Source: a virus (lineage: Duplodnaviria; Caudoviricetes). From it: a DNA stretch of 64,000 nt. Where the stretch lies: positions 1 to 64,000 of the IMG/VR virus record IMGVR_UViG_3300028048_000066; one strand, 5' to 3'. Shown piece by piece: positions 1,624-12,303 of the stretch. Positions within the stretch are counted from its first letter, which is position 1, and each line of letters begins with the position of its first letter. The notes under the pieces were generated by a model, which saw nothing but the letters and a program-made list of their open reading frames with translations, was not told the DNA's origin and did not search any database. The translations under genes and the position numbers were made by a program.

Positions 1624-1638
1624 TGCTAAATTAAATGA
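1624..1638 (+). promoter_or_regulatory. Putative phage late promoter TGCTAAATTAAATGA
   Basis: Exact 15-mer that recurs in intergenic gaps upstream of structural-region genes. Confidence 0.8.
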
Positions 1639-1661
1639 TAAAGAAGATACTAGGAGAACAT

Positions 1662-4600
1662 ATGAATCTTTTATTTGAAGGATTTAAGGACTATTATAAG
1701 AGGTTAGAAGAGGAATCTGGTGGTTCTTCTATTATTTATACTTACCAATCACCTAAAGTATTAAAACAATTGAAAAGTGGTAAAACATATATTGCTAATT
1801 ATGATAGAGGTATGATTGGCAAAGAACCATACATAGAACTAGCAAGAGTTTTAGGATTGAATGATTGTCCTATTTTTTGTGGTCTTACTATTGATGATAC
1901 AAATAGAATGCTTGAAGCAAGTGGATTAGAAAAATATGGAAAAGAATTATTAAAACTAAAAGTTCCAAATAAATACATTCACAAGATGGCATATTATGAT
2001 TGGACTGATTACATTTATTTTTGGATTGATAAACAAGAAGAAGACTATATATCAAAGGAAGATGCAGAAAATTCATTAAGAAATTTCTCTGGTCAAGCAC
2101 CTTGTCAAGTAGTTATAGATAGAATAGAACCTTCTTGGTTAGTTGATGAATCATTAACAGAAAGCGATGATAGTAAACAAATAAAATTAAATAATAATGT
2201 ATATGTATTTGTACCTATAGAAATGCTCTCTACAATTTCAAGAGAGGGACTTAAAGATTTTGTATTTTCTAATGTTTCTAATTTATCTAGTTTAAATAGT
2301 TTATTAAGATGGTATGATAAAAATCTTTATAAATTAGGAACTAATTTTAGTGGTATTGGTTATATTGTTGATGAGAAAAAATATATTCTATTAACAATAA
2401 ATAGCAGTAATTTAGATTATTCAAAAATCAAACCATATAATAAAAGTTGGTTAGAAGAATTATATTATTATGATGGGGTAGTGTCTTTTGATAATATAAA
2501 TGTAATTGATTCTATTGCAGGTAGTTGGGGAAGTTCAAACTGGATGTTTAAAAACAAAACCAAACATTATGACAACTTTGATTTTCTAGTGAATCAAGAA
2601 GAATTAAAAGAATTAAAAACTCAAGGAGATGTTCTTGACTATTTGATAAATCTTATATTATCAGATTTAGATGCTACATCAGCATTTTGTAATTTATATT
2701 ATCGTAGAATGGGAATTGATAATAATATGTATTTGTTTAGAAGGGAATCCGATAAAGAGCAAAAAAGAATATTAAAAAATATGTTCAGCGATAATATTGT
2801 AGAAATTAAAGGAAGGAAATCACCAGAGAACAGAAAACAAGTAGTTTATTTATATAGAGGAACATCGGAAAGAACTTTTAGCAAAAACTTTGAATCATAT
2901 GCTGGAATATTCTTTAGTACAAAAAGGAGTGCAGTATCTGGTTGGGGAGAAACTAAAAAATACTTACTAAAGAGTGATGCAAAAATTTATCGTGGTGATG
3001 ATTCTTCAGATAATTTTTGTAGTGCTTATTATAATAAAGAATATCCTGAGTTACAAAAATGCTTTGGTATGTATTTTGGAGATTTAAAAATTAAAAAGAT
3101 TTCGGATTTTTCAAAACTTACTAAAGAACAAAAAGATTATTTAGAGGATAGAGTAGAACAACAAGCAGGAACTCAATTCTGTTGGTATGATGTGTGGACT
3201 TGGTGTACTCAACTTGTCGCTAGAATTGAATTAGAAAAACAAGGATATGATGGTGCTTATTGGACACTTGAAGATTTTGGAAACCCAGAGCAATATCAAA
3301 TATGGAATCTTGATGCTGTTAAGTCTTATGATGGTGTCATTGAATCTATTAGTGAAGCGAAACAATCAAAACCAGAATTAGAAGTGGTTGATTATCGTGA
3401 TTGGACAGAACACACAAAGTTAAAAGATGTTTTAGATATTTGGTCATCCTATTATTATGTAGGTAAAAAGGCACTAAAAACACTACAGTTATTTCACGGA
3501 ACAACTGATTATAATTGGAAAAAGATAAAGAAAGCGGGTGCTATAAAACCAAAGAAATCAAAAAACTTTAATGCTTCTAAAAATGGTTGTGTTTATCTTA
3601 CTTATTCTGAAGATGATGCTTATGAGTTTGTAGGCAGAGCAACAGATTTCAATACTGGTGTTGTTGTTATGGAGATAGACATTAACAAACTAGACCTTGA
3701 TAAGTTATATATAGACACAAACATAGAAGAATACACAGTATATGAAGATGAAAACGGAAAAGAATACTGGGACTTTTGGGCATTTGAATATTATGGAGAA
3801 ATACCAGAAAATGCTTGGATAAATGTTGATATTGATGAATCTCTTAATGAATCTAAACAGGACACACTAAATTTCAAAAACTGGGTAGAAGATAAAGTAA
3901 GTGAACTTGGTATGAGAGATGGTGGTAATAAAGACTCATATGTAAACTCTTGGGTTAATGGATTTGAAAAGAATAGAAGCAGATTAAAAGCACCATTTAA
4001 TGACTACTATTATTGGATTAAACAAAATAACTGGGATGAATTTACAAAAGCATTCTCTGAGATAAGTAAGAAAGATGATACCAAACAAAAAGAGAAAGAA
4101 GGTGCTAAACTCTTATATAACAAAGATGATTGGAAAGTATATGAAATTACTACATATGAAGCAAGTGCTAAATATGGTAAGAATACTAAATGGTGTATAA
4201 GTGGTTCAAAGAGATGGAATAATGGTGAAAACGGAACTAAATACTGGAATGATTATACAAAACAAGGATGCAAGTTCTATTTCTTCATTAAAAACAACAC
4301 TGAAAAATATGCTTTAGTTGTATATCCAGATGATAAAGAGTATGAGATATTTAATCAAGATGATGTACCACTTGCTTATATACCAAATGCTCCAGATGTA
4401 AAAGAGATACCAGTAAACTATAATGAAGATGTTGATAGTGAATTAAAAGAGTTCACCAATTTATTTGTGCAACATAAATTACCTAATGAAGATTTTATTA
4501 TTGAGAATGTGATTGGAAAAATAAATGGTGACTGTGATGGTTATATGTTGTATATGTATAGTCCTAAAGATGCTTACAATGAATTTAGAGAAGATGTTCC

Positions 4601-5012
4601 AGATGATTATATTGAATACTATTTTGAAAACAACCACAGTTTTGATGATTGGGATGGTGATTTTCCATATTTAGTTAATTTTGATTATATTGTAGGCGAT
4701 ATGGAAAAACTAAATAGTGCAGAGGAGTTTTGGGAACTTACAAAGTCTGGTTTAAATAAATATAACTACTTTATATTTGCAGATGATAGTTGGGATGGAA
4801 ATTTTGAAGTGCACTGTCATACAAACTTTAGTGATGCTCTAATAAATATGTGGCAATTAAACTTTTGGTGTGATGGTAATTTTAGTGAGTTCATAAAAGA
4901 GTTTGCAAAATATTGTTTGAATGAGATTAAATGGTGGATAACAAAGACAGATGAAATTGATATACAACCATATCTCAATTTAGGGTTTACAGAAGAGTTT
5001 TTAACTAAATAA
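1662..5012 (+). CDS. Modular polyprotein: DUF3841-like, multiple ADP-ribosyltransferase-like domains, PcfJ-like domain
   Basis: Start moved from 1635 to the ATG at 1662 after AGGAG. Motifs LYRGT..GIFFS, LFHGT..GCVYLT and YEASAKYGKNTKWCIS. Modules are bounded by LEEES, VDESLTES, VIESISEA and IDESLNES. Confidence 0.7.
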   Translation: MNLLFEGFKDYYKRLEEESGGSSIIYTYQSPKVLKQLKSGKTYIANYDRGMIGKEPYIELARVLGLNDCPIFCGLTIDDTNRMLEASGLEKYGKELLKLKVPNKYIHKMAYYDWTDYIYFWIDKQEEDYISKEDAENSLRNFSGQAPCQVVIDRIEPSWLVDESLTESDDSKQIKLNNNVYVFVPIEMLSTISREGLKDFVFSNVSNLSSLNSLLRWYDKNLYKLGTNFSGIGYIVDEKKYILLTINSSNLDYSKIKPYNKSWLEELYYYDGVVSFDNINVIDSIAGSWGSSNWMFKNKTKHYDNFDFLVNQEELKELKTQGDVLDYLINLILSDLDATSAFCNLYYRRMGIDNNMYLFRRESDKEQKRILKNMFSDNIVEIKGRKSPENRKQVVYLYRGTSERTFSKNFESYAGIFFSTKRSAVSGWGETKKYLLKSDAKIYRGDDSSDNFCSAYYNKEYPELQKCFGMYFGDLKIKKISDFSKLTKEQKDYLEDRVEQQAGTQFCWYDVWTWCTQLVARIELEKQGYDGAYWTLEDFGNPEQYQIWNLDAVKSYDGVIESISEAKQSKPELEVVDYRDWTEHTKLKDVLDIWSSYYYVGKKALKTLQLFHGTTDYNWKKIKKAGAIKPKKSKNFNASKNGCVYLTYSEDDAYEFVGRATDFNTGVVVMEIDINKLDLDKLYIDTNIEEYTVYEDENGKEYWDFWAFEYYGEIPENAWINVDIDESLNESKQDTLNFKNWVEDKVSELGMRDGGNKDSYVNSWVNGFEKNRSRLKAPFNDYYYWIKQNNWDEFTKAFSEISKKDDTKQKEKEGAKLLYNKDDWKVYEITTYEASAKYGKNTKWCISGSKRWNNGENGTKYWNDYTKQGCKFYFFIKNNTEKYALVVYPDDKEYEIFNQDDVPLAYIPNAPDVKEIPVNYNEDVDSELKEFTNLFVQHKLPNEDFIIENVIGKINGDCDGYMLYMYSPKDAYNEFREDVPDDYIEYYFENNHSFDDWDGDFPYLVNFDYIVGDMEKLNSAEEFWELTKSGLNKYNYFIFADDSWDGNFEVHCHTNFSDALINMWQLNFWCDGNFSEFIKEFAKYCLNEIKWWITKTDEIDIQPYLNLGFTEEFLTK

Positions 5013-5030
5013 AAAATTTTCATAAACACA

Positions 5031-5059
5031 TTTAAATTCTATTTCAATTGTTGTATAAT
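5031..5059 (+). promoter_or_regulatory. sigmaA-like -10 element (TTGTATAAT) in an AT-rich intergenic region
   Basis: TATAAT at 5054-5059; weak -35. Confidence 0.45.
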
Positions 5060-5107
5060 ATAATAGATAATAATAAATATAATACTAGATATAATATTAC
5101 TATTAAA

Positions 5108-5168
5108 ATATTTTGCTAAAGCAAAATATCGTAAACATCATTAGATGTTTACTTTATAGTATTATAAA
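5108..5168. repeat. Three tandem inverted repeats
   Basis: ATATTTTGCT/AGCAAAATAT (5108-5129), GTAAACATC/GATGTTTAC (5131-5152), TTTATA/TATAAA (5153-5168). Confidence 0.8.
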
Positions 5169-5188
5169 CATATAGATATAAAAATAGA

Positions 5189-5203
5189 TGCTAAATTAAA
5201 TGA
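5189..5203 (+). promoter_or_regulatory. Putative late promoter TGCTAAATTAAATGA
   Basis: Exact motif copy. Confidence 0.8.
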
Positions 5204-5235
5204 TAAAATATATAAATATGGAGATATAGTATACT

Positions 5236-6804
5236 ATGATACCTAGAGAAAGAAGTATTAAAGAAAGAGATATTGAAGTAAAAGATGACAATATTGATGA
5301 AATTGAAGCAACAACATATGATGAATTATCTAAAATAGAAGATGAAACAATAGAAGAAGATGAGAATGCTATTGTTGATACTATTTATAAATTATCACAT
5401 ATTAGAGATATAGATGGAGAAGACACACCATCTTATTGTTTTGTTCACGACATTACAGATACATTTGGTTTAAGTGAAGATGAAGCAGTAGGAATTGCTA
5501 AAGACAATGGTTATGTTGTTTATGAGATTTTACCAAATGGGGATGTAGATAGTGGGTTAGTTATTGCAGATAGGGATTGTTCAAAAGATTTAATTAGCAC
5601 AGACTATGAGAAATTCTTTGGTGTAGAAATTGAAATCAAACCTTATGGAGAAGAAGTTGAAGATAAGGTTGAAGTAGAAGAAACACCAGATGAAATAGAA
5701 GTTGAGAAAGAAGTTGAAGTTAAAGATGAACCAGTAGAAGAAGCATTAGATAATATTAAGAATAATGATACTTGGGAAGAATCACTTAAAGAAGATAAAG
5801 GAAGTTTTGATTTAGTAAAAGAAATCACAACAGACCCAGATGCAGAGAAATATATTGCACAAAATGGTAAGACCTGTTATAGAGTATTTGGAACATTAAA
5901 TTGGTATTTCTATAAATGTGAACAAGCAGGAATTAAACCAGTTCAAGAAGATGATTTCTTATATACAGCAAAAGGAAATGGTTATGAATTTGATTGGGTA
6001 GAAGAAGATTGCATTTTAGCATTAGATAAACCATTAAAAGAGAGCAAAAAACTTAATGAAATGCACTCAGTTCAAGATTATAAGGGTTATGAACTTGATT
6101 TTAATGAAGATTCAATTCACGATATGTTAGAATTAGGTTTATCTAACTATGTTGATAAAGATTTAATAGAGATTACAAAAGATGGTAAACACATTGCTTG
6201 GGCAAAGAGTTATTCTGATGCTAGAAAGATTGTTGATGAAAAAACAAAAGAAGATGAAGTACAAAAACCAGAAGAACATCCTATCACAGTTATTTTTAGA
6301 ACTCTAGGTAATTATAAAGTAGGAGAAATAAAGAACACATTGCGTAGTTATCAAAAAGCAGTTGGTGGGTATATAGATGCTTTTGCTTTCCCAGGAAGAG
6401 ATGATATTGATATTGTTCATAGAGAATATGGAGATAAAAAAAATGAAGCATTAGTTATTGTAGGTCTTAATAAGGATACAAACTGTTGGTGCAGTCTAAC
6501 ACAAGAACAAATTGATTATGTAATGAATTATGTAAAAAATAATGTACTAGAGTCATATGGTGATAATGTTTTACATATTGGATTGCCTGTTACAATGAAT
6601 GGTGATAAATTAAAGAAATTCAACACAAAGAGTGGTATGGATAGATATAAAAACTCAAACAATGGTTACAGATTCCAATATTATAAAGTACCAAAAGATG
6701 AGTTCAAATATGCAAAGAAAGAAACAAAAGATGATGAACAAGCATTTTTCAAACTTCAAGATAGTGGAAGAGCAGTAGAAGAAGAAAAGAAAAATAACGA
6801 ATAA
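5236..6804 (+). CDS. Acidic modular polyprotein with a DUF3846-like module
   Basis: GGAG RBS. EIKNTLRSYQKAVGGYI..ALVIVG..SLTQEQID module. VEEA, EESLKED, LKES, LNEM and VLES motifs. Confidence 0.7.
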   Translation: MIPRERSIKERDIEVKDDNIDEIEATTYDELSKIEDETIEEDENAIVDTIYKLSHIRDIDGEDTPSYCFVHDITDTFGLSEDEAVGIAKDNGYVVYEILPNGDVDSGLVIADRDCSKDLISTDYEKFFGVEIEIKPYGEEVEDKVEVEETPDEIEVEKEVEVKDEPVEEALDNIKNNDTWEESLKEDKGSFDLVKEITTDPDAEKYIAQNGKTCYRVFGTLNWYFYKCEQAGIKPVQEDDFLYTAKGNGYEFDWVEEDCILALDKPLKESKKLNEMHSVQDYKGYELDFNEDSIHDMLELGLSNYVDKDLIEITKDGKHIAWAKSYSDARKIVDEKTKEDEVQKPEEHPITVIFRTLGNYKVGEIKNTLRSYQKAVGGYIDAFAFPGRDDIDIVHREYGDKKNEALVIVGLNKDTNCWCSLTQEQIDYVMNYVKNNVLESYGDNVLHIGLPVTMNGDKLKKFNTKSGMDRYKNSNNGYRFQYYKVPKDEFKYAKKETKDDEQAFFKLQDSGRAVEEEKKNNE

Positions 6805-6887
6805 TATATAATAAACCGATAAGTGATTTAGGTAATGAAGGTAAATTATTTGTTTATTCAAAGTTACCAAAATCAATAGAGGAAAGT

Positions 6888-7283
6888 ATGAATGAAGATA
6901 TTGAAAAACACGAAACACTAAACCCTTTACTCTGGAATGAAGATAATACATTGAAACCAGAAGTAAAAGAAAAACTTATGCAAATAGCAGATGAGTTTAT
7001 TAAAGGTTTAGAAGAAGACGGTATCAAAATGGATGTGGATGATATTAAGATAGTTGGAAGCAATTGTTCTTACAACTATACAAAAGATAGTGATATTGAT
7101 TTACACATTATAGCAAAAAATATAAAAGCACCAAAAGAAGTGTATGCTCTTTTATATAGTGCTTATAGGTCATTATGGAATAAAAACTATGATATTGATT
7201 TTTACGGTATTCCAGTAGAGATATATGTAGAAACTCCTGAACTAGATACTGTAGAACCAACAACAATAGATGTAGAGGAATAA
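6888..7283 (+). CDS. Pol-beta-superfamily nucleotidyltransferase, N-terminal (catalytic) half
   Basis: GS..(x)..DIDLH motif and a downstream PVEIYVE strand; the frame is also open upstream to 6798. Confidence 0.75.
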   Translation: MNEDIEKHETLNPLLWNEDNTLKPEVKEKLMQIADEFIKGLEEDGIKMDVDDIKIVGSNCSYNYTKDSDIDLHIIAKNIKAPKEVYALLYSAYRSLWNKNYDIDFYGIPVEIYVETPELDTVEPTTIDVEE

Positions 7284-7285
7284 AT

Positions 7286-10117
7286 ATGAAATTAGAAAAG
7301 GTAAATTTAAGAGAAAACAGAATCCTAACAGAAGGCACTAAGTATGATAAACAAGCAGCAAAGATACTTTCAGATTCTGGTTTATTTGATGCAGAAACAA
7401 GCGAAAAGATAATCAATGCTTTATTTAGAGAAGACATTCACGCATTTGTTCACGCACCTAACTGGTTAGAGAAATACTTAAAAGGTATTGCTAGAATGAT
7501 AGTTGAAGAATCAAACGGTGATACAAATAAAGCAAGAGAGTTCTTAATGGAATGTCCTAGTGTATTTGATGAGTATTTAACTTGGATTAGAGAAACTAGA
7601 GATAAAATAGAAGACCAAAAGGAAAAAGAAAAACTTGATGCTGAATTTGTAAACACTATGCATTATAAAGATGTAAAAGATACATTAGAAGATATTCAAG
7701 CACAAAGAGATGAGCAATCAAGACAAGAACTTGCAAATATGAAGTTCAAACAATCAGATTATACATTAGTTCCAATTGATTCATATGAGCAAATGCACGA
7801 CACATATGGTGGTCATTGGACTGGAGATGGTTCTTCTGATAAGTATGCTGGTGGTGGCGGAACTGCTTGGTGTCATACAAACAATAAAGGTGTATATGAC
7901 AGTTGGGTAAGTGGTGGAAATAAGTTCTTTGTATTGCAACATAACGACTGGAAAGATATACCATTCAACCCAAAAACAAATAAAGAAGAAAAAGGTAAGG
8001 ATGCTTATGGTAATTCTTTAATTGCTTTAAGAATATCTCCAAAAGGAAAGATACTAAATGCAACATTAAGATGTAACCACACAGGTGTTCCAGATTTAGC
8101 AGATAACCAATATCGTACTTATTCTGATTTATCAAAATTAGCAGGATTTAATGTTGAAGATGAAATGAAAAAATATTATGACATTAAACCGTTTGATATG
8201 AAGTCATTATTCAAAATAGATGGAAATGGCGTGATGAATCGTGACTATGATTATTATAGAGAGTGGGCAGAAGAGGGCAGTGAAATTACTAAGGTTGTAA
8301 TTCCAGATGGAGTTATAGCATTAGGTGATAGTGTATTTTCTGATTTTCGTTCACTAAAAGAGGTAAAACTTCCAAGCAGTCTTAAAATAATTGGTAGTAA
8401 TGCCTTTTATAATTGTAGTAGTTTAGAGAACATAGACTTACAAGGAATTGAAGTTATTGATGAATATGCTTTTAGAGGATGTAGGCAATTAAGTGCTATT
8501 ACACTTCCAAGCACCATAACAACACTTGAAAATGGTATATTTAATAATTGTGAAAAATTAAAGAGCATAAATATTGAGTGTAGTTTGACTGAATTACCTG
8601 CAGGCATTTTCTATTACTGCTCAGGTTTAGAGTCTATACAATTACCTGAAACATTGGAACTTATTGGAAATGCAGCATTAGGTGGAACAAGCATAAAAGA
8701 GATAACAATTCCAAACGGGGTTACAATTATAGCAGATAATGCATTTGTTTCTTGTAAGAATTTAGAAAAAATAAATTTACCAGAAGGTTTAAAGAGCATT
8801 GGTCGTTCTGCATTTTCTGGTGATGTTTTATTAACTGAAATTGATATTCCTGCTGGTGTCACTACTATTGGGGCTGAAGCATTCCTGGGGAGTGGAATTA
8901 AAAAAATAAATCTTCCTGCTGGAATAAAAGAAATTCCATACTGTGCATTTAATAATAGTGCTATTAGTGAAATTGAGATTCCAAATGGTGTTGAATCAAT
9001 TGGTGAGAGGGCATTCTCCTCATCTTCTCTTATAAAAGTAACAATACCAAGTTCTGTTAAAAAAATAGAAAGTGGAGCATTCTATTATTCATCATTAGAA
9101 GGGACTCTTAAATTACCAGAAGGACTTAATGAAATTGGTGATTATGCATTTAATAGTTGTTCAAACTTAACAGAAATTGAAGTACCAAACAGTGTAAACA
9201 AACTTGTTGGTAATCCATTTGATTGGCATACTATAATAAGAACAGACAATGATTATGTGGTTGAATATTGTATAAATAGAGGCCTTACAGTTGTATCTGA
9301 AAATCAACCAAAAGGAAGACCATATGTAATTTATACAAGAGATGATTATTTAAGAAAATATGGTGATGAAGATATTTCTTTTGAAGATTTTGTAGACAAA
9401 GCATTAAAAGAAATCTATAAGAAATTAGCATTTGTACAAGTTGATAAAGACACATATAACATTGTTGGTAGAAACTTTGTAGATGCTTCTAAACTTCAAA
9501 CATTATTAAAGCATCTTACATCTGGTGATAGAGAAGATGGATATGAAGTTAGATATATTAACAATGAAAATGAATCACTAAATTCAAATGAAAAAACAGA
9601 ACAACTTCAAGAAAAGATTGTAAAGAAGGGTTCTAAATATCAAGTACAAAGTGAAAAAGGAAGAAATCTTGGAACTTATGATACAAAAGAAGAAGCAGAG
9701 AAGAGATTAAAACAAGTAGAGTACTTTAAGCATAAAGATGATATTAAAGAAGCAGTACAAGACCAACCTCTAAAGTCTAATGGAATTTATTCAGTAAAAG
9801 AAGATAAATGGATAAAAGAACCAGTACAAACAGATATTCCAGATATTGACTATGATGCTTTTGAAGAACAATTCAAGGGTTGGGAAGATAGATATTTTGA
9901 TTTAGTAGAGAATGCAGGAGTATCTAATGTAGAAAAGATAGCAGAGATTGAGAACTTAATTGAAGACTTATATAATTTAAGAAAAGAAAGTCTTGCAAAA
10001 GATGGAGAGTATGCTATAGGAAATCTAGTATTTAAAGAAGCAAGAAACTTAGGATACCTAGATGAATTAAAAGAATTAAAAAACGAGTTAAAGAGTAAAG
10101 AATTAAGTTTAGAATAA
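7286..10117 (+). CDS. Polyprotein: PcfJ-like, BspA-type leucine-rich repeats, small beta-beta-alpha module, C-terminal half of the nucleotidyltransferase
   Basis: TAWCHT motif; about 23-aa LP..L..IG..AF..C..L..I repeats (about 8280-9230); C-terminal SNGIYS..KWIKEP..RKESLAKDGEYAIGNLVFKEARNLGYL. Confidence 0.75.
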   Translation: MKLEKVNLRENRILTEGTKYDKQAAKILSDSGLFDAETSEKIINALFREDIHAFVHAPNWLEKYLKGIARMIVEESNGDTNKAREFLMECPSVFDEYLTWIRETRDKIEDQKEKEKLDAEFVNTMHYKDVKDTLEDIQAQRDEQSRQELANMKFKQSDYTLVPIDSYEQMHDTYGGHWTGDGSSDKYAGGGGTAWCHTNNKGVYDSWVSGGNKFFVLQHNDWKDIPFNPKTNKEEKGKDAYGNSLIALRISPKGKILNATLRCNHTGVPDLADNQYRTYSDLSKLAGFNVEDEMKKYYDIKPFDMKSLFKIDGNGVMNRDYDYYREWAEEGSEITKVVIPDGVIALGDSVFSDFRSLKEVKLPSSLKIIGSNAFYNCSSLENIDLQGIEVIDEYAFRGCRQLSAITLPSTITTLENGIFNNCEKLKSINIECSLTELPAGIFYYCSGLESIQLPETLELIGNAALGGTSIKEITIPNGVTIIADNAFVSCKNLEKINLPEGLKSIGRSAFSGDVLLTEIDIPAGVTTIGAEAFLGSGIKKINLPAGIKEIPYCAFNNSAISEIEIPNGVESIGERAFSSSSLIKVTIPSSVKKIESGAFYYSSLEGTLKLPEGLNEIGDYAFNSCSNLTEIEVPNSVNKLVGNPFDWHTIIRTDNDYVVEYCINRGLTVVSENQPKGRPYVIYTRDDYLRKYGDEDISFEDFVDKALKEIYKKLAFVQVDKDTYNIVGRNFVDASKLQTLLKHLTSGDREDGYEVRYINNENESLNSNEKTEQLQEKIVKKGSKYQVQSEKGRNLGTYDTKEEAEKRLKQVEYFKHKDDIKEAVQDQPLKSNGIYSVKEDKWIKEPVQTDIPDIDYDAFEEQFKGWEDRYFDLVENAGVSNVEKIAEIENLIEDLYNLRKESLAKDGEYAIGNLVFKEARNLGYLDELKELKNELKSKELSLE

Positions 10118-10118
10118 G

Positions 10119-10133
10119 TGCTAAATTAAATGA
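10119..10133 (+). promoter_or_regulatory. Putative late promoter TGCTAAATTAAATGA
   Basis: Exact motif copy. Confidence 0.8.
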
Positions 10134-10155
10134 TTAAGTAATAAGAGGTAAATAT

Positions 10156-12303
10156 ATGTCAAAAGAAGTAAAGAAAAGCAATGTAAAGGAATTACCTGGT
10201 CTTAATGGCAATGCTTATTCTGCAAGTAGATATTTATATACAAACATCAAGAAAAGACCTTTAGTAGTTGAATCAAAGAAACAAAAGAAGTTAAATGAAA
10301 AGATTACTTATGAGTTTGATGATAATGGTGGAATTATTGTTTTATCTACTGATGTAAATGCACAACAACTTTCACAAAACAAGTTAATGAATTGGATTAA
10401 GAAGAAAGTTGCAACATTAAAGAATAGAGTTAGTGCAGATAAAAACATCAAGAATGCGGTACTTAATAATGTTCCAGAAACAGGTTGGACAGTAGGTAAG
10501 TATTTAAGAGGAAGATACCACGCAGCAGATGGTAGTGATTTTGATGAAAACTCATTATCAGTTGAATTACTTGGACTACCTACAGATGTTTTAGTTAGTA
10601 TTGCAGAGGACTTATGTAATGAGTTCAAGCAAGAATCAGTTATAGTTAAAGACTACAATAAAAACAAAGTATATATTGTAAATGGTGAAAAAGAGGTAAA
10701 AGAGGAAAGTATGAACGAAGATTATTGGCAAAACACAAGTCACTCAGCAAGAGTTAGAGAGTATGAAGATGGAACAAAAGAGTTATATTCTTATGGAACA
10801 CTTATTGCAACAATCAAACCAGATGGAGATGTTGAATTAACAAGATATTGGGACTATTCCAGAACAACAGGACAACACTTAAGAGATTTCTTGAGAAAGT
10901 ATGGCATTGGAAATTATGGTGCATCTAAAGATATTTACAATGACCTTATAAGAAAGAGAAAGGTAAAGACAGATAACATTGAATTAAGAAAAGCATCAGC
11001 ACTAGACAATGCAATAGAGTGTATTAGATTTGGTGATGGTGATAAAGATGAATGTGACTGGTGTGGACTAAGTGAAAAAGACTTTGATGAAATTTGGAAA
11101 CAAGCAAAGAAAGAAGTAAGAGAATTAAATAAGAAAAAGAAAAATAATACAAATAAGAAGGAAGATAAAGAAATGAAAGAAGCAAAGTACACACAAAGAC
11201 CAGAGAAGTTAATCAAAGAGTCTAAAGATGAGTTTGATATTAAAGACTATTTAGACATTGAGTTAGAAGATGATAATTCAGGTGAAGGTGGAATTGAGTT
11301 TGAAGGTGAAACCGTAAGAGATTTTATTGGATATTGTGGTTATGATGAAGATGGAAATTTTGATGTAGAAAATGCAGATGAATATTGTAAACCAATAACA
11401 TCATTGAAGCAATTAAATAAAGAATTAAAGGACTGTGGTATTAAACCTTTGAAATCAAAGAAATCCATTAAAGAAGATTTTGAAGATGTTGAGTACGAAG
11501 AAGAAATTGAGTTTTTTGGTGGTGATGAAGGTGATTTAGATGTAGAAGACTTCATAAGTGAAAACGAAGATTGGTTATCATCTGATTATGAAGATTATTA
11601 CTATGACTGGGATGATTATAGAAAGGGATATGTTTTATATGGTATAGTTAATAAAGTTAAAGATTTGTCTGATGATGAATTACTTGATTATATTGTAGAC
11701 AACTTTGAAGAAATTACAGGTAAACCAGTAGATGTTGTATATAATGAGTATGATGAGAATGATGATGCACAACCAATATTTGACCAAGATGGAATTGATG
11801 CAACAAGTGATAAAATAAGAGATTTCTTGTCAACAATAGCAAAAAAATCAGATAGAGAAATTGATGATTTATTTTATAAGTTAGATGATATTTTGACAGA
11901 TAGATTGTCTGAATCTTGTGAAAAGAAGTCAATTAAAGAAGGTAGAGCACAAATTTATCAAGATATGGAAGATGAGTACTTTGATGCATTAGCAAAAGCA
12001 GAAAAAAGTGGAAATGTAGAATACTGCGTTTTAACAGATACAGATGAAGAATGCTTTGGTAATTTTAAAAAGGCAGTTGAATTTGCAAAGAAAAATGGTG
12101 TAGATGAAATTGAAATCAAACCTTTTACAGTCAATCTTGGATACAACTATTTCTTAGATGATTATGACACAGAAGATTACAAAGGTGTTATTGTTGATTT
12201 AGATATGAATATTATTGATTATCTTGATGAGTCTTGCAAATCAAAGAAACTTACAAAGAAAGTAGTAAGAGAGAGCAAAGCAAATAAAAACAATAAGAAA
12301 TAA
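10156..12303 (+). CDS. Acidic modular polyprotein, candidate internal virion protein
   Basis: GAGGT RBS; many [ILVM]xE[SADG] sites; modules include ..LCNEFKQESVIVKD and LYSYGTLIA..YSRTTGQH. Confidence 0.75.
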   Translation: MSKEVKKSNVKELPGLNGNAYSASRYLYTNIKKRPLVVESKKQKKLNEKITYEFDDNGGIIVLSTDVNAQQLSQNKLMNWIKKKVATLKNRVSADKNIKNAVLNNVPETGWTVGKYLRGRYHAADGSDFDENSLSVELLGLPTDVLVSIAEDLCNEFKQESVIVKDYNKNKVYIVNGEKEVKEESMNEDYWQNTSHSARVREYEDGTKELYSYGTLIATIKPDGDVELTRYWDYSRTTGQHLRDFLRKYGIGNYGASKDIYNDLIRKRKVKTDNIELRKASALDNAIECIRFGDGDKDECDWCGLSEKDFDEIWKQAKKEVRELNKKKKNNTNKKEDKEMKEAKYTQRPEKLIKESKDEFDIKDYLDIELEDDNSGEGGIEFEGETVRDFIGYCGYDEDGNFDVENADEYCKPITSLKQLNKELKDCGIKPLKSKKSIKEDFEDVEYEEEIEFFGGDEGDLDVEDFISENEDWLSSDYEDYYYDWDDYRKGYVLYGIVNKVKDLSDDELLDYIVDNFEEITGKPVDVVYNEYDENDDAQPIFDQDGIDATSDKIRDFLSTIAKKSDREIDDLFYKLDDILTDRLSESCEKKSIKEGRAQIYQDMEDEYFDALAKAEKSGNVEYCVLTDTDEECFGNFKKAVEFAKKNGVDEIEIKPFTVNLGYNYFLDDYDTEDYKGVIVDLDMNIIDYLDESCKSKKLTKKVVRESKANKNNKK

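Follow-up and report, generated by a model that had tools for sequence, protein, structure and literature searches.

The closest precedents for a phage enzyme that is split yet functional are the "genes in pieces" of T4-like phages, prototyped by nrdA-a/nrdA-b of Aeromonas phage Aeh1 (PMC3045599), and the "fractured genes" with split inteins found in phages (PMC2677866). In both cases, a conserved enzyme gene has been interrupted by inserted DNA and both fragments have been kept; the insert is either a homing endonuclease gene with an open reading frame (ORF) of its own or a split intein that religates the chain, and fragments of the Aeh1 nrdA type reassemble noncovalently into a working enzyme. 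Here we analyze a comparable interruption in the first 64 kb of the complete, 148,163-bp virus record IMGVR_UViG_3300028048_000066, which has direct terminal repeats; this stretch of 64,000 nucleotides is referred to below as the window. The interruption affects a nucleotidyltransferase (NTase) domain whose catalytic N-terminal part (N-half) and remaining C-terminal part (C-half) are encoded by two adjacent genes, termed here ORF1 and ORF2. The noncovalent reassembly that characterizes nrdA-type fragments is, for this pair, a prediction. Unlike in Aeh1 nrdA and the fractured genes, the inserted material is effector-like cargo fused to the downstream fragment, the breaks recur at two loops of the fold, and the genes lie in a polyprotein context with protease-type sites.

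A second point of reference is the class of polyvalent proteins that phages and conjugative elements encode (Iyer, Burroughs, Anand, de Souza, and Aravind 2017; PMC5512222), described in the passages of that article that were searched as large, multidomain proteins encoded beside virion genes and predicted to be packaged and injected. Their modules include ART-PolyVal, Fic, SprT-like, DUF3846, and Pol-β NTase domains, and they undergo rampant domain shuffling, as seen here. Unlike at the present locus, the Pol-β NTase of those passages is a minimal version confined to polyvalent proteins of conjugative elements, and processing is proposed to occur through embedded metallopeptidases; nested insertions, a domain split across genes, and segmentation at L/I-x-E are not found in them, and the terms "split" and "inserted into" are absent from the text of the article. 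Processing at L/I-x-E is instead known from T4, in which gp21 cleaves after the Glu of L/I-X-E, Glu-Ala bonds included, and targeting of internal proteins relies on a 10-residue capsid-targeting sequence (CTS) at their N terminus, the processing of which depends on residues 8 and 10 (PMC9026906). The locus shares with the T4 internal proteins and Alt a T4-type gp13 and prohead protease, L/I-x-E motifs at module borders, and a 10-residue N terminus with L8 and E10; whereas T4 trims terminal propeptides of single-domain cargo (PMC9026906), the motifs here would dissect multimodule polyproteins and cut inside an enzyme fold.

Pol-β NTases with a helical C-terminal part occur both as one chain, as in KNTase, ANT(4'), and AAD(9), and as two genes, as in the HI0073/HI0074 and MNT/HEPN pairs, and in this respect the present family is alike. 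However, HI0073/HI0074 and MNT/HEPN are split at the domain border, so that the N-terminal protein is a complete minimal NTase, whereas here the cut precedes strands β4/β5. Mature noncovalent two-chain assemblies that form after removal of an internal segment are familiar from penicillin G acylase, caspases, and insulin with its C-peptide; by comparison, the "spacer" here would comprise whole functional modules of up to 820 aa, and the chains of the fission forms come from different genes. The locus combines known kinds of phenomena, namely, gene fission, nested domains, and T4-type cargo processing, in a recurrent and unusually well-marked pattern, and the literature searched contained no earlier account of phage polyproteins with a split or nested NTase.

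A nucleotidyltransferase domain encoded in two pieces

Both ORFs lie exactly where a preceding analysis by eye and translation (the sequence-only reading) had placed them (positions 6888 to 7283, 131 aa, and 7286 to 10117, 943 aa, on the plus strand). The motifs on which that reading was founded were located in the translations, with GS, DID, and PVEIYVE in the N-half and SNGIYS, KWIKEP, and LRKESLAKDGEYAIGNLVFKEARNLGYL in the C-half; an IKE string occupies residues 820 to 822 of ORF2, and 9752 is the start of the first codon thereafter. In searches of PHROGs, the 131-aa product matched positions 19 to 131 of the 247 positions of phrog_36119 (E = 1e-19), and ORF2 residues 826 to 942 matched positions 135 to 247 (E = 3e-13), such that the two halves together cover the profile but do so from two polypeptides. 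In a tblastn search of 50,697 phage records, T4-like Synechococcus phages, every Lak megaphage, Caulobacter phage Cr30, and other phages were found to carry the halves side by side within one gene and reading frame. Likewise, at ~70 of 80 IMG/VR loci collected through N-half alignment, both are contiguous in one ORF as an NTase of ~235 aa. A search of the complete 148-kb genome for an intact copy of the family returned only the two half-matches, and scanning viral contigs for exact peptides of each half singly recovered no close relatives. On the basis of these alignments, the halves are confirmed, far beyond chance, as consecutive parts of one single-chain family. The central claim of the sequence-only reading, an NTase split over two genes with ~820 aa between its halves, is thereby upheld, with each half separately matching consecutive parts of the same single-chain homologs in both PHROGs and tblastn. 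The comparison also defines phrog_36119 as a widespread, uncharacterized phage NTase family that spans cyanophages, Lak megaphages, and gut phages.

We assign the domain to the Pol-β superfamily on the basis of motifs and topology rather than of a curated model. G57-S58, D69-x-D71, and V110-E111, which correspond to the Pol-β signature of hG[GS], then [DE]h[DE]h on the following strand, and a third carboxylate on a strand farther along, are invariant in 40 sequences, including that of the window. In an AlphaFold2 model of a contiguous relative (predicted local distance difference test score [pLDDT], 91.4), the strands that bear them are placed as expected. The order is a helix (23 to 42), a strand ending in G-S (48 to 55), a strand with D-x-D (69 to 76), a helix (86 to 101), and a strand with VEIYVE (109 to 117). 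These are followed by a loop (118 to 126) that we term H1, a hairpin of strands 127 to 129 and 134 to 137 (GIYS and WIxxP), and four helices, the first of which is followed by a short loop that we term H2. The minimal NTase 2rff aligns to model residues 5 to 135, hairpin included (Z = 6.8; root-mean-square deviation, 4.1; 102 aligned). Because this alignment takes in the hairpin beyond the break, the model places the cut inside the catalytic fold, in the β3/β4 loop, and not at a domain border. The structure 1ylq gave a Z of 6.1, and the best Foldseek E value was at least 0.0027, a range that permits only the claim of a common arrangement. Fold matches to HI0073/HI0074, MNT/HEPN, KNTase, ANT(4'), and AAD(9)-type NTases are weak; searches of the PDB by sequence and by fold yielded weak matches only, the helical C-terminal part matching generic bundles only, which permits no assignment to a functional family. 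Scores against curated NTase models stay below their cutoffs (18.6 to 18.9 bits versus 21 for NTP_transf_2, 18.3 to 19.2 versus 26.9 for Polbeta, and 15.7 versus 60 for MntA).

Comparison with related loci indicates that the gene fission is genuine and conserved. The junction is identical in L005 to L008, and since these are four independent assemblies, the split is not an assembly artifact. In the diverged locus L004, the first gene also stops at the equivalent point, ...TTIDVE, and is followed by TAA and a 15-nt spacer with GAGAGGA. A TGA at 7238 closes the frame of ORF2 on its upstream side, and the segment from 7241 to 7283 contains no slippery heptamer. The two ORFs of L004 share a frame, with one TAA between them, whereas those of the window and of L005 are in different frames; because the frame relation thus differs among relatives, no recoding mechanism is plausible. 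A scan of positions 6600 to 7500 for sigma-70 promoters and terminators found nothing beyond shuffled expectation and no terminator between the two genes, which are likely to be translationally coupled.

In both L005 and L004, a longer protein (396 or 595 aa) has the N-half as its C-terminal domain, and the notion that the 131-aa protein is the ancestral unit is not supported. The window lacks ~700 bp that encode the 235-aa N-terminal module of the 396-aa gene (window 6788 to 6887 versus L005 1884 to 2711), and it is the absence of this upstream module that leaves a stand-alone 131-aa ORF. The leader of the N-half has 95% nucleotide identity to L005 2579 to 2711, where it is internal to the 396-aa gene. 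We interpret it from this alignment as a former linker, ...YNKPISDLGNEGKLFVYSKLPKSIEES, left as an untranslated leader after loss or exchange of the cassette. The 522-aa ORF of the window is the orthologue of a separate 625-aa gene in L005, and the possibility that it and the N-half are one gene broken by a 1-nt frameshift is not supported; the frame 0 stop and the stop of the ORF are only 2 codons apart, with no slippery site. The two halves differ in their recent histories, with nucleotide identities between the window and L005 of 96 to 98% for the N-half and 80 to 85% for the C-half, and such mosaic identities support cassette exchange. As a separate observation, a 265-bp segment with 94% identity sits in different genes of the two genomes, in the 715-aa ORF of the window (11652 to 11916) and in an 835-aa ORF of L005 (11627 to 11891), which points to module shuffling among these polyprotein genes.

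ORF2 unites several unrelated modules in one polypeptide, as polyvalent proteins do: an N-terminal region, a BspA-type leucine-rich repeat (LRR) solenoid at approximately residues 330 to 700 (LRR_5; PF13306; E = 2e-84), a phrog_3684-like module at residues 760 to 825 (E = 3e-8), and the NTase C-half. Intein and Hint families were sought in a Pfam scan, and none was found. Intein blocks are also absent; the N-half tail reads TPELDTVEPTTIDVEE, DDIKEAVQDQPLK precedes the C-half, and there is no Cys/Ser/Thr-HN junction. With the ORFs in different frames and a stop codon between them, the earlier judgment that no intein is involved was correct. Homing endonuclease families (GIY-YIG, HNH, LAGLIDADG, etc.) were likewise not found in ORF2, in which the insert is in frame with the C-half, and an intein or homing endonuclease within the insert was accordingly rejected.

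Recurrent insertions and fissions at two loops

The sequences retrieved with either half indicate that large polyvalent proteins carry the NTase as one of their modules and that H1 and H2 are hotspots for in-frame insertion and fission. More than 200 proteins of 518 to 1650 aa carry the C-half at 50 to 85% identity in a search with it, together with Fic, PemK, SprT-like, ART-PolyVal, Gp49, and LRR_5 domains, and the N-half, searched exhaustively with HMMER, had 3137 matches. Architecture classes were derived from 253 fetched proteins, 127 of which have a contiguous NTase domain. In-frame insertions occur at H1 in 8 (67 to 242 aa), at H2 in 23 (up to 354 aa), and at both loops in 1 (263 aa at H1). 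The N-half alone, with the protein ending no more than 25 aa after it, is present in 47 (of 150 N-half representatives), and the C-half alone is present in 40. The view of the sequence-only reading that the cargo was placed in a loop of the enzyme is borne out: in relatives, sequence is inserted in frame at this very point, and the loop lies inside the minimal NTase fold. Its label for some of that cargo, PcfJ-like, found no backing, as the N-terminal region of ORF2 has no Pfam match even at an E of ≤10.

Fissions were verified on DNA at L089, L090, L091, L093, and L094/95, and both parts were found at every locus checked. At L094/95, a 678-aa gene ends with ...VELYVETE before its stop codon, and in the next gene, of 655 aa, the C-half follows 317 aa of cargo. 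L091 has a Fic/Doc-like module before the C-half and a Zn-ribbon in H2, and at L089 and L090 the domain extends over three consecutive genes, being broken at both H1 and H2; L093, on a low-coverage contig, is a simple fission. On a FastTree tree of the 117-aa N-half domain, the broken or contiguous state changes at least 26 times, compared with a mean of 50 for shuffled labels, a rough count rather than a reliable tally of independent events. It is nevertheless clear from the tree that the broken state arose or moved many times.

Apparent breaks at L009, L011 to L014, L019, and L062/63 were rejected as fissions, as these have in-frame TGA codons at conserved Trp positions and use genetic code 4. 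TGA encodes Trp in L009, L011 to L014, and L019, which are IMG/VR contigs of ~220 to 237 kb, and also in L062/63, L090, and L093. In the NTase of these contigs, the in-frame TGA falls on the conserved Trp of DKW-IKEP and of EW-EDRY, and use of code 4 raises the total long-ORF length 1.4- to 2.1-fold. A recurrent H2 insert of ~100 aa was also noted in P0009, P0028, P0039, P0043, P0046, P0057, P0075, P0096, P0177, and gene B of L091, distinguished by a YxGP[LI]YRF motif and a Zn-ribbon-like ending, C..CG..LND.GECPLCDLGDESVL[DE]E. In P0043, 356 aa separate the two pieces of the C-half, and the recorded domains of the protein include Fic (PF02661).

Predicted reassembly, proposed prohead processing, and competing explanations

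The ratios of nonsynonymous to synonymous substitution rates (dN/dS) among the window, L005, and L004, for which synonymous divergence reaches 0.8 to 0.9, indicate that both halves are maintained by purifying selection. These ratios are 0.06 to 0.11 for the N-half and 0.10 to 0.23 for the C-half, with 0.05 to 0.18 for the gp13 neck protein, 0.18 to 0.27 for the N-terminal part of the cargo, and 0.55 to 0.63 for the LRR cargo. The N-half retains the family-invariant residues L11, D52, G57, S68, D69, D71, H73, V110, and E111, and the C-half retains the invariant S16, W22, R79, N93, K97, R100, and L120. Complex prediction for the two fragments of the window gave 0.68, with a best control of 0.01; of 80 solved complexes, 58 attain this mark, as do 2 of 110 mismatched pairs, and the prediction was aligned with co-linear homologs, a setting in which halves of one fold tend to pass. 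Contact agreement between runs was at least 61%, and the partner pLDDT was at least 79. In the predicted interface, the C-half hairpin (residues 11 to 31) packs on β1/α1 of the N-half (residues 52 to 58 and 20 to 34), as in strand complementation. Modeling of the fragment pair, which the sequence-only reading had put forward as a check, therefore returned an interface, and, together with purifying selection on both halves, this supports noncovalent reassembly of the two fragments, with binding as a prediction.

An explanation that dispenses with reassembly is that the halves no longer cooperate, the N-half alone being a minimal NTase or the C-half being kept as a structural, docking, or packaging module, with the segments persisting mainly as recombination anchors for cargo cassettes. 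The mosaic identities of the region, the loss of the upstream cassette, the many changes of the broken state on the N-half tree, and the existence of minimal NTases of ~100 aa (2rff, MNT) all speak for this. However, the N-half lacks β4/β5, which are part of the minimal fold, both halves keep all of their invariant residues, including the R, N, K, and R of the C-half, at dN/dS values of ≤0.23, and at every fission locus examined, the halves lie in adjacent genes. As a recombination role is, moreover, compatible with function, we consider loss of cooperation unlikely.

A prohead protease of the T4 gp21 type is present in the genome (PF03420; E = 2e-15, scoring above the cutoff), and motifs of the type that this protease would cleave are positioned with unusual regularity. 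At the N-terminal border of the NTase, [LIM]xE lies four residues before a conserved His in 160 of 183 sequences (3.9 expected), and at the C-terminal border, ELSL-E-x-L-x-E is present in 59 of 103 (2.2 expected). In the H1 linker, [LIM]xE occurs exactly 8 residues before SNGIYS in 36 of 168 (3.6 expected), with A, G, or S at P1' in 27 of 168 (0.73 expected). When [LIMV]xE is counted 7 to 15 residues before SNGIYS, it is found in 25/28 fission forms, 9/9 forms with an in-frame insertion, and 20/21 contiguous forms with a long linker, compared with 1/96 short-linker forms. Insertions at H2 are likewise flanked by such motifs. Stand-alone homologs mostly lack the border motifs (present in 9/37 and 2/37), which indicates that these are not required by the fold. 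The IKE/A site before the C-half of ORF2, which had been singled out as a point of prohead proteolysis, belongs to this position-locked, enriched motif in a genome with a gp21-type protease and stands as a candidate cleavage site. The N terminus of ORF2, MKLEKVNLRE, is in turn a candidate capsid-targeting propeptide, with MKLEKVRLKE and MKLEQVKLLE in two orthologues; across all of the fetched proteins, N-terminal [LI]xE is enriched only ~2.5-fold at positions 4 to 15, which is suggestive.

The sequence-only reading had gone further and envisaged a maturation-activated split enzyme that possibly reassembles only after prohead proteolysis. In the strong form of this idea, the halves would stay apart or inactive as long as the 820-aa cargo has not been cut from the C-half by the prohead protease, and activity would be confined to the mature head or to the time after injection. 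A conserved IKE/A directly before the C-half and the presence of the protease would fit such a scheme, and control of a zymogen-like kind would make sense for an effector that is injected. It is at odds with the single-chain relatives that keep insertions of 67 to 263 aa at the same loop, implying that the fold forms with cargo attached, and with the predicted interface, which excludes the cargo-adjacent residues. Dependence of activity on prior proteolysis is thus unsupported, and we judge it no more probable than loss of cooperation. Least probable by a wide margin is that a frameshift, readthrough, or a sequencing error yields one polypeptide after all, making this a nested insertion instead of a split; although many single-chain relatives carry insertions and a single TAA separates the L004 ORFs in one frame, this was rejected in view of the different frames in the window and L005, the TGA at 7238, the lack of a slippery site in the 40-nt segment, the identical junction in four independent assemblies, the strong Shine-Dalgarno sequence and ATG that each junction has of its own, and frame relations that vary among relatives, leaving no conserved recoding signal.

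The explanation that we favor, with moderate confidence, is a conserved fission of a Pol-β-superfamily NTase domain whose halves associate into one working enzyme, with such cuts being tolerated owing to prohead processing. The N-half would bring the G-S, D-x-D, and E motifs, and the C-half would bring the hairpin that completes the sheet and a helical bundle with invariant basic residues; the products of the two probably coupled genes would associate by strand complementation. The polyvalent proteins probably become packaged in the prohead, where the gp21-type protease would cut them at L/I-x-E, in which case the mature NTase would be a noncovalent complex of several chains whether or not the gene is split. 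The break might then be tolerated and recur because prohead cleavage would produce a two-chain enzyme anyway. Modules or stop/start junctions in H1 and H2 would be nearly neutral and accumulate through cassette exchange, and the conserved halves may double as recombination anchors for the swapping of cargo.

Several points weigh against this explanation. The family remains under every curated NTase cutoff in Pfam and NCBIfam, and we know of no described activity for any phrog_36119 member. Packaging into the virion, cleavage there, and delivery to the host are inferred from gene position, the CTS-like N terminus, and protease-type motifs; [LI]xE is short, and these proteins are rich in Glu, Lys, and Ile. 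The conserved EA[RK]xQSALK could be a structural element instead of a cleavage site. The N-half of the window stands alone with no CTS-like N terminus, which leaves its route to the capsid unexplained. To these must be added the differing recent histories of the two halves and the leniency of complex prediction toward parts of one fold.

A broader, tentative possibility is that, across a large group of T4-like gut phages, the NTase fold acts as a common scaffold on which effectors diversify, two of its surface loops taking up entire cargo modules or breaks in the gene. The prohead protease would excise loop cargo at position-locked L/I-x-E sites, and the enzyme would be rebuilt in the capsid from two or three fragments, possibly of different genes; pairing of the fragments may also tether or copackage untargeted proteins, such as the 131-aa N-half with no CTS. 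If the favored fission-and-reassembly explanation is true and the fragments rebuild a working enzyme, these phages hold a natural split-protein system in which breaks and insertions have evolved independently, in dozens of variants, at two defined loops, a ready data set on which positions of the Pol-β fold tolerate fission and nested domains. T4 head maturation would, in addition, extend to the dissection of multieffector polyproteins, and the free shuffling of these gene arrays would be explained if prohead processing makes chain connectivity irrelevant. As the phrog_36119 NTase is probably delivered with the DNA, it would be a candidate early host takeover or counterdefense enzyme.

Feature coordinates and neighboring genes

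Positions of the two gene fragments and associated features in the window
Feature	Positions	Strand	Remarks
N-half leader	6805..6887	+	putative polyprotein linker remnant, YNKPISDLGNEGKLFVYSKLPKSIEES read in the N-half frame; GAGGAA just 5' of the ATG
NTase N-half gene (131 aa)	6888..7283	+	α1, β1 with G-S, β2 with D-x-D, α3, β3 with V-E (VEIYVE), 16-aa acidic tail, TAA
Fission junction GAGGAA-TAA-AT-ATG	7275..7288	+	Shine-Dalgarno sequence within the end of gene 1, stop, 2 nt, start of gene 2 in another frame
ORF2 N terminus MKLEKVNLRE, candidate targeting propeptide	7286..7315	+	length and L8/E10 layout of the T4 IPIII CTS
ORF2 cargo, residues 1 to 822	7286..9751	+	~310-aa N-terminal region of no assigned family, LRR_5 solenoid, phrog_3684-like module
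I-K-E/A, candidate gp21-type cleavage site	9743..9754	+	8 residues before SNGIYS; kept in all three orthologues
NTase C-half	9752..10117	+	β4/β5 hairpin (SNGIYSV, KWIKEP), then a four-helix bundle with invariant R, N, K, and R

Immediately downstream of the NTase genes is a neck gene of the T4 gp13 type. Four large ORFs precede that gene in the interval from 1635 to 12303, and those of 1125, 522, 943, and 715 aa have [LIV]xE within residues 6 to 12, as part of the strings ILGE, SIKE, NLRE, and NVKE, respectively. The N termini of these four match the T4 capsid-targeting layout, and the 131-aa N-half ORF has no such N terminus. The PF03420 domain of the prohead protease is located outside the window, at G000:C1:139787-140278, inside an open frame of 542 aa, compared with the 198 positions of the Pfam profile; the gp21-type protease may thus be fused to another domain. 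In the 715-aa ORF (10156 to 12303), residues 103 to 198 show weak matches to the S-adenosylmethionine (SAM) lyase family PF23780 (E = 0.009) and to phrog_2226, annotated as a SAM-dependent methyltransferase (E = 6e-5), and residues 197 to 262 match phrog_4264 (E = 5e-11).

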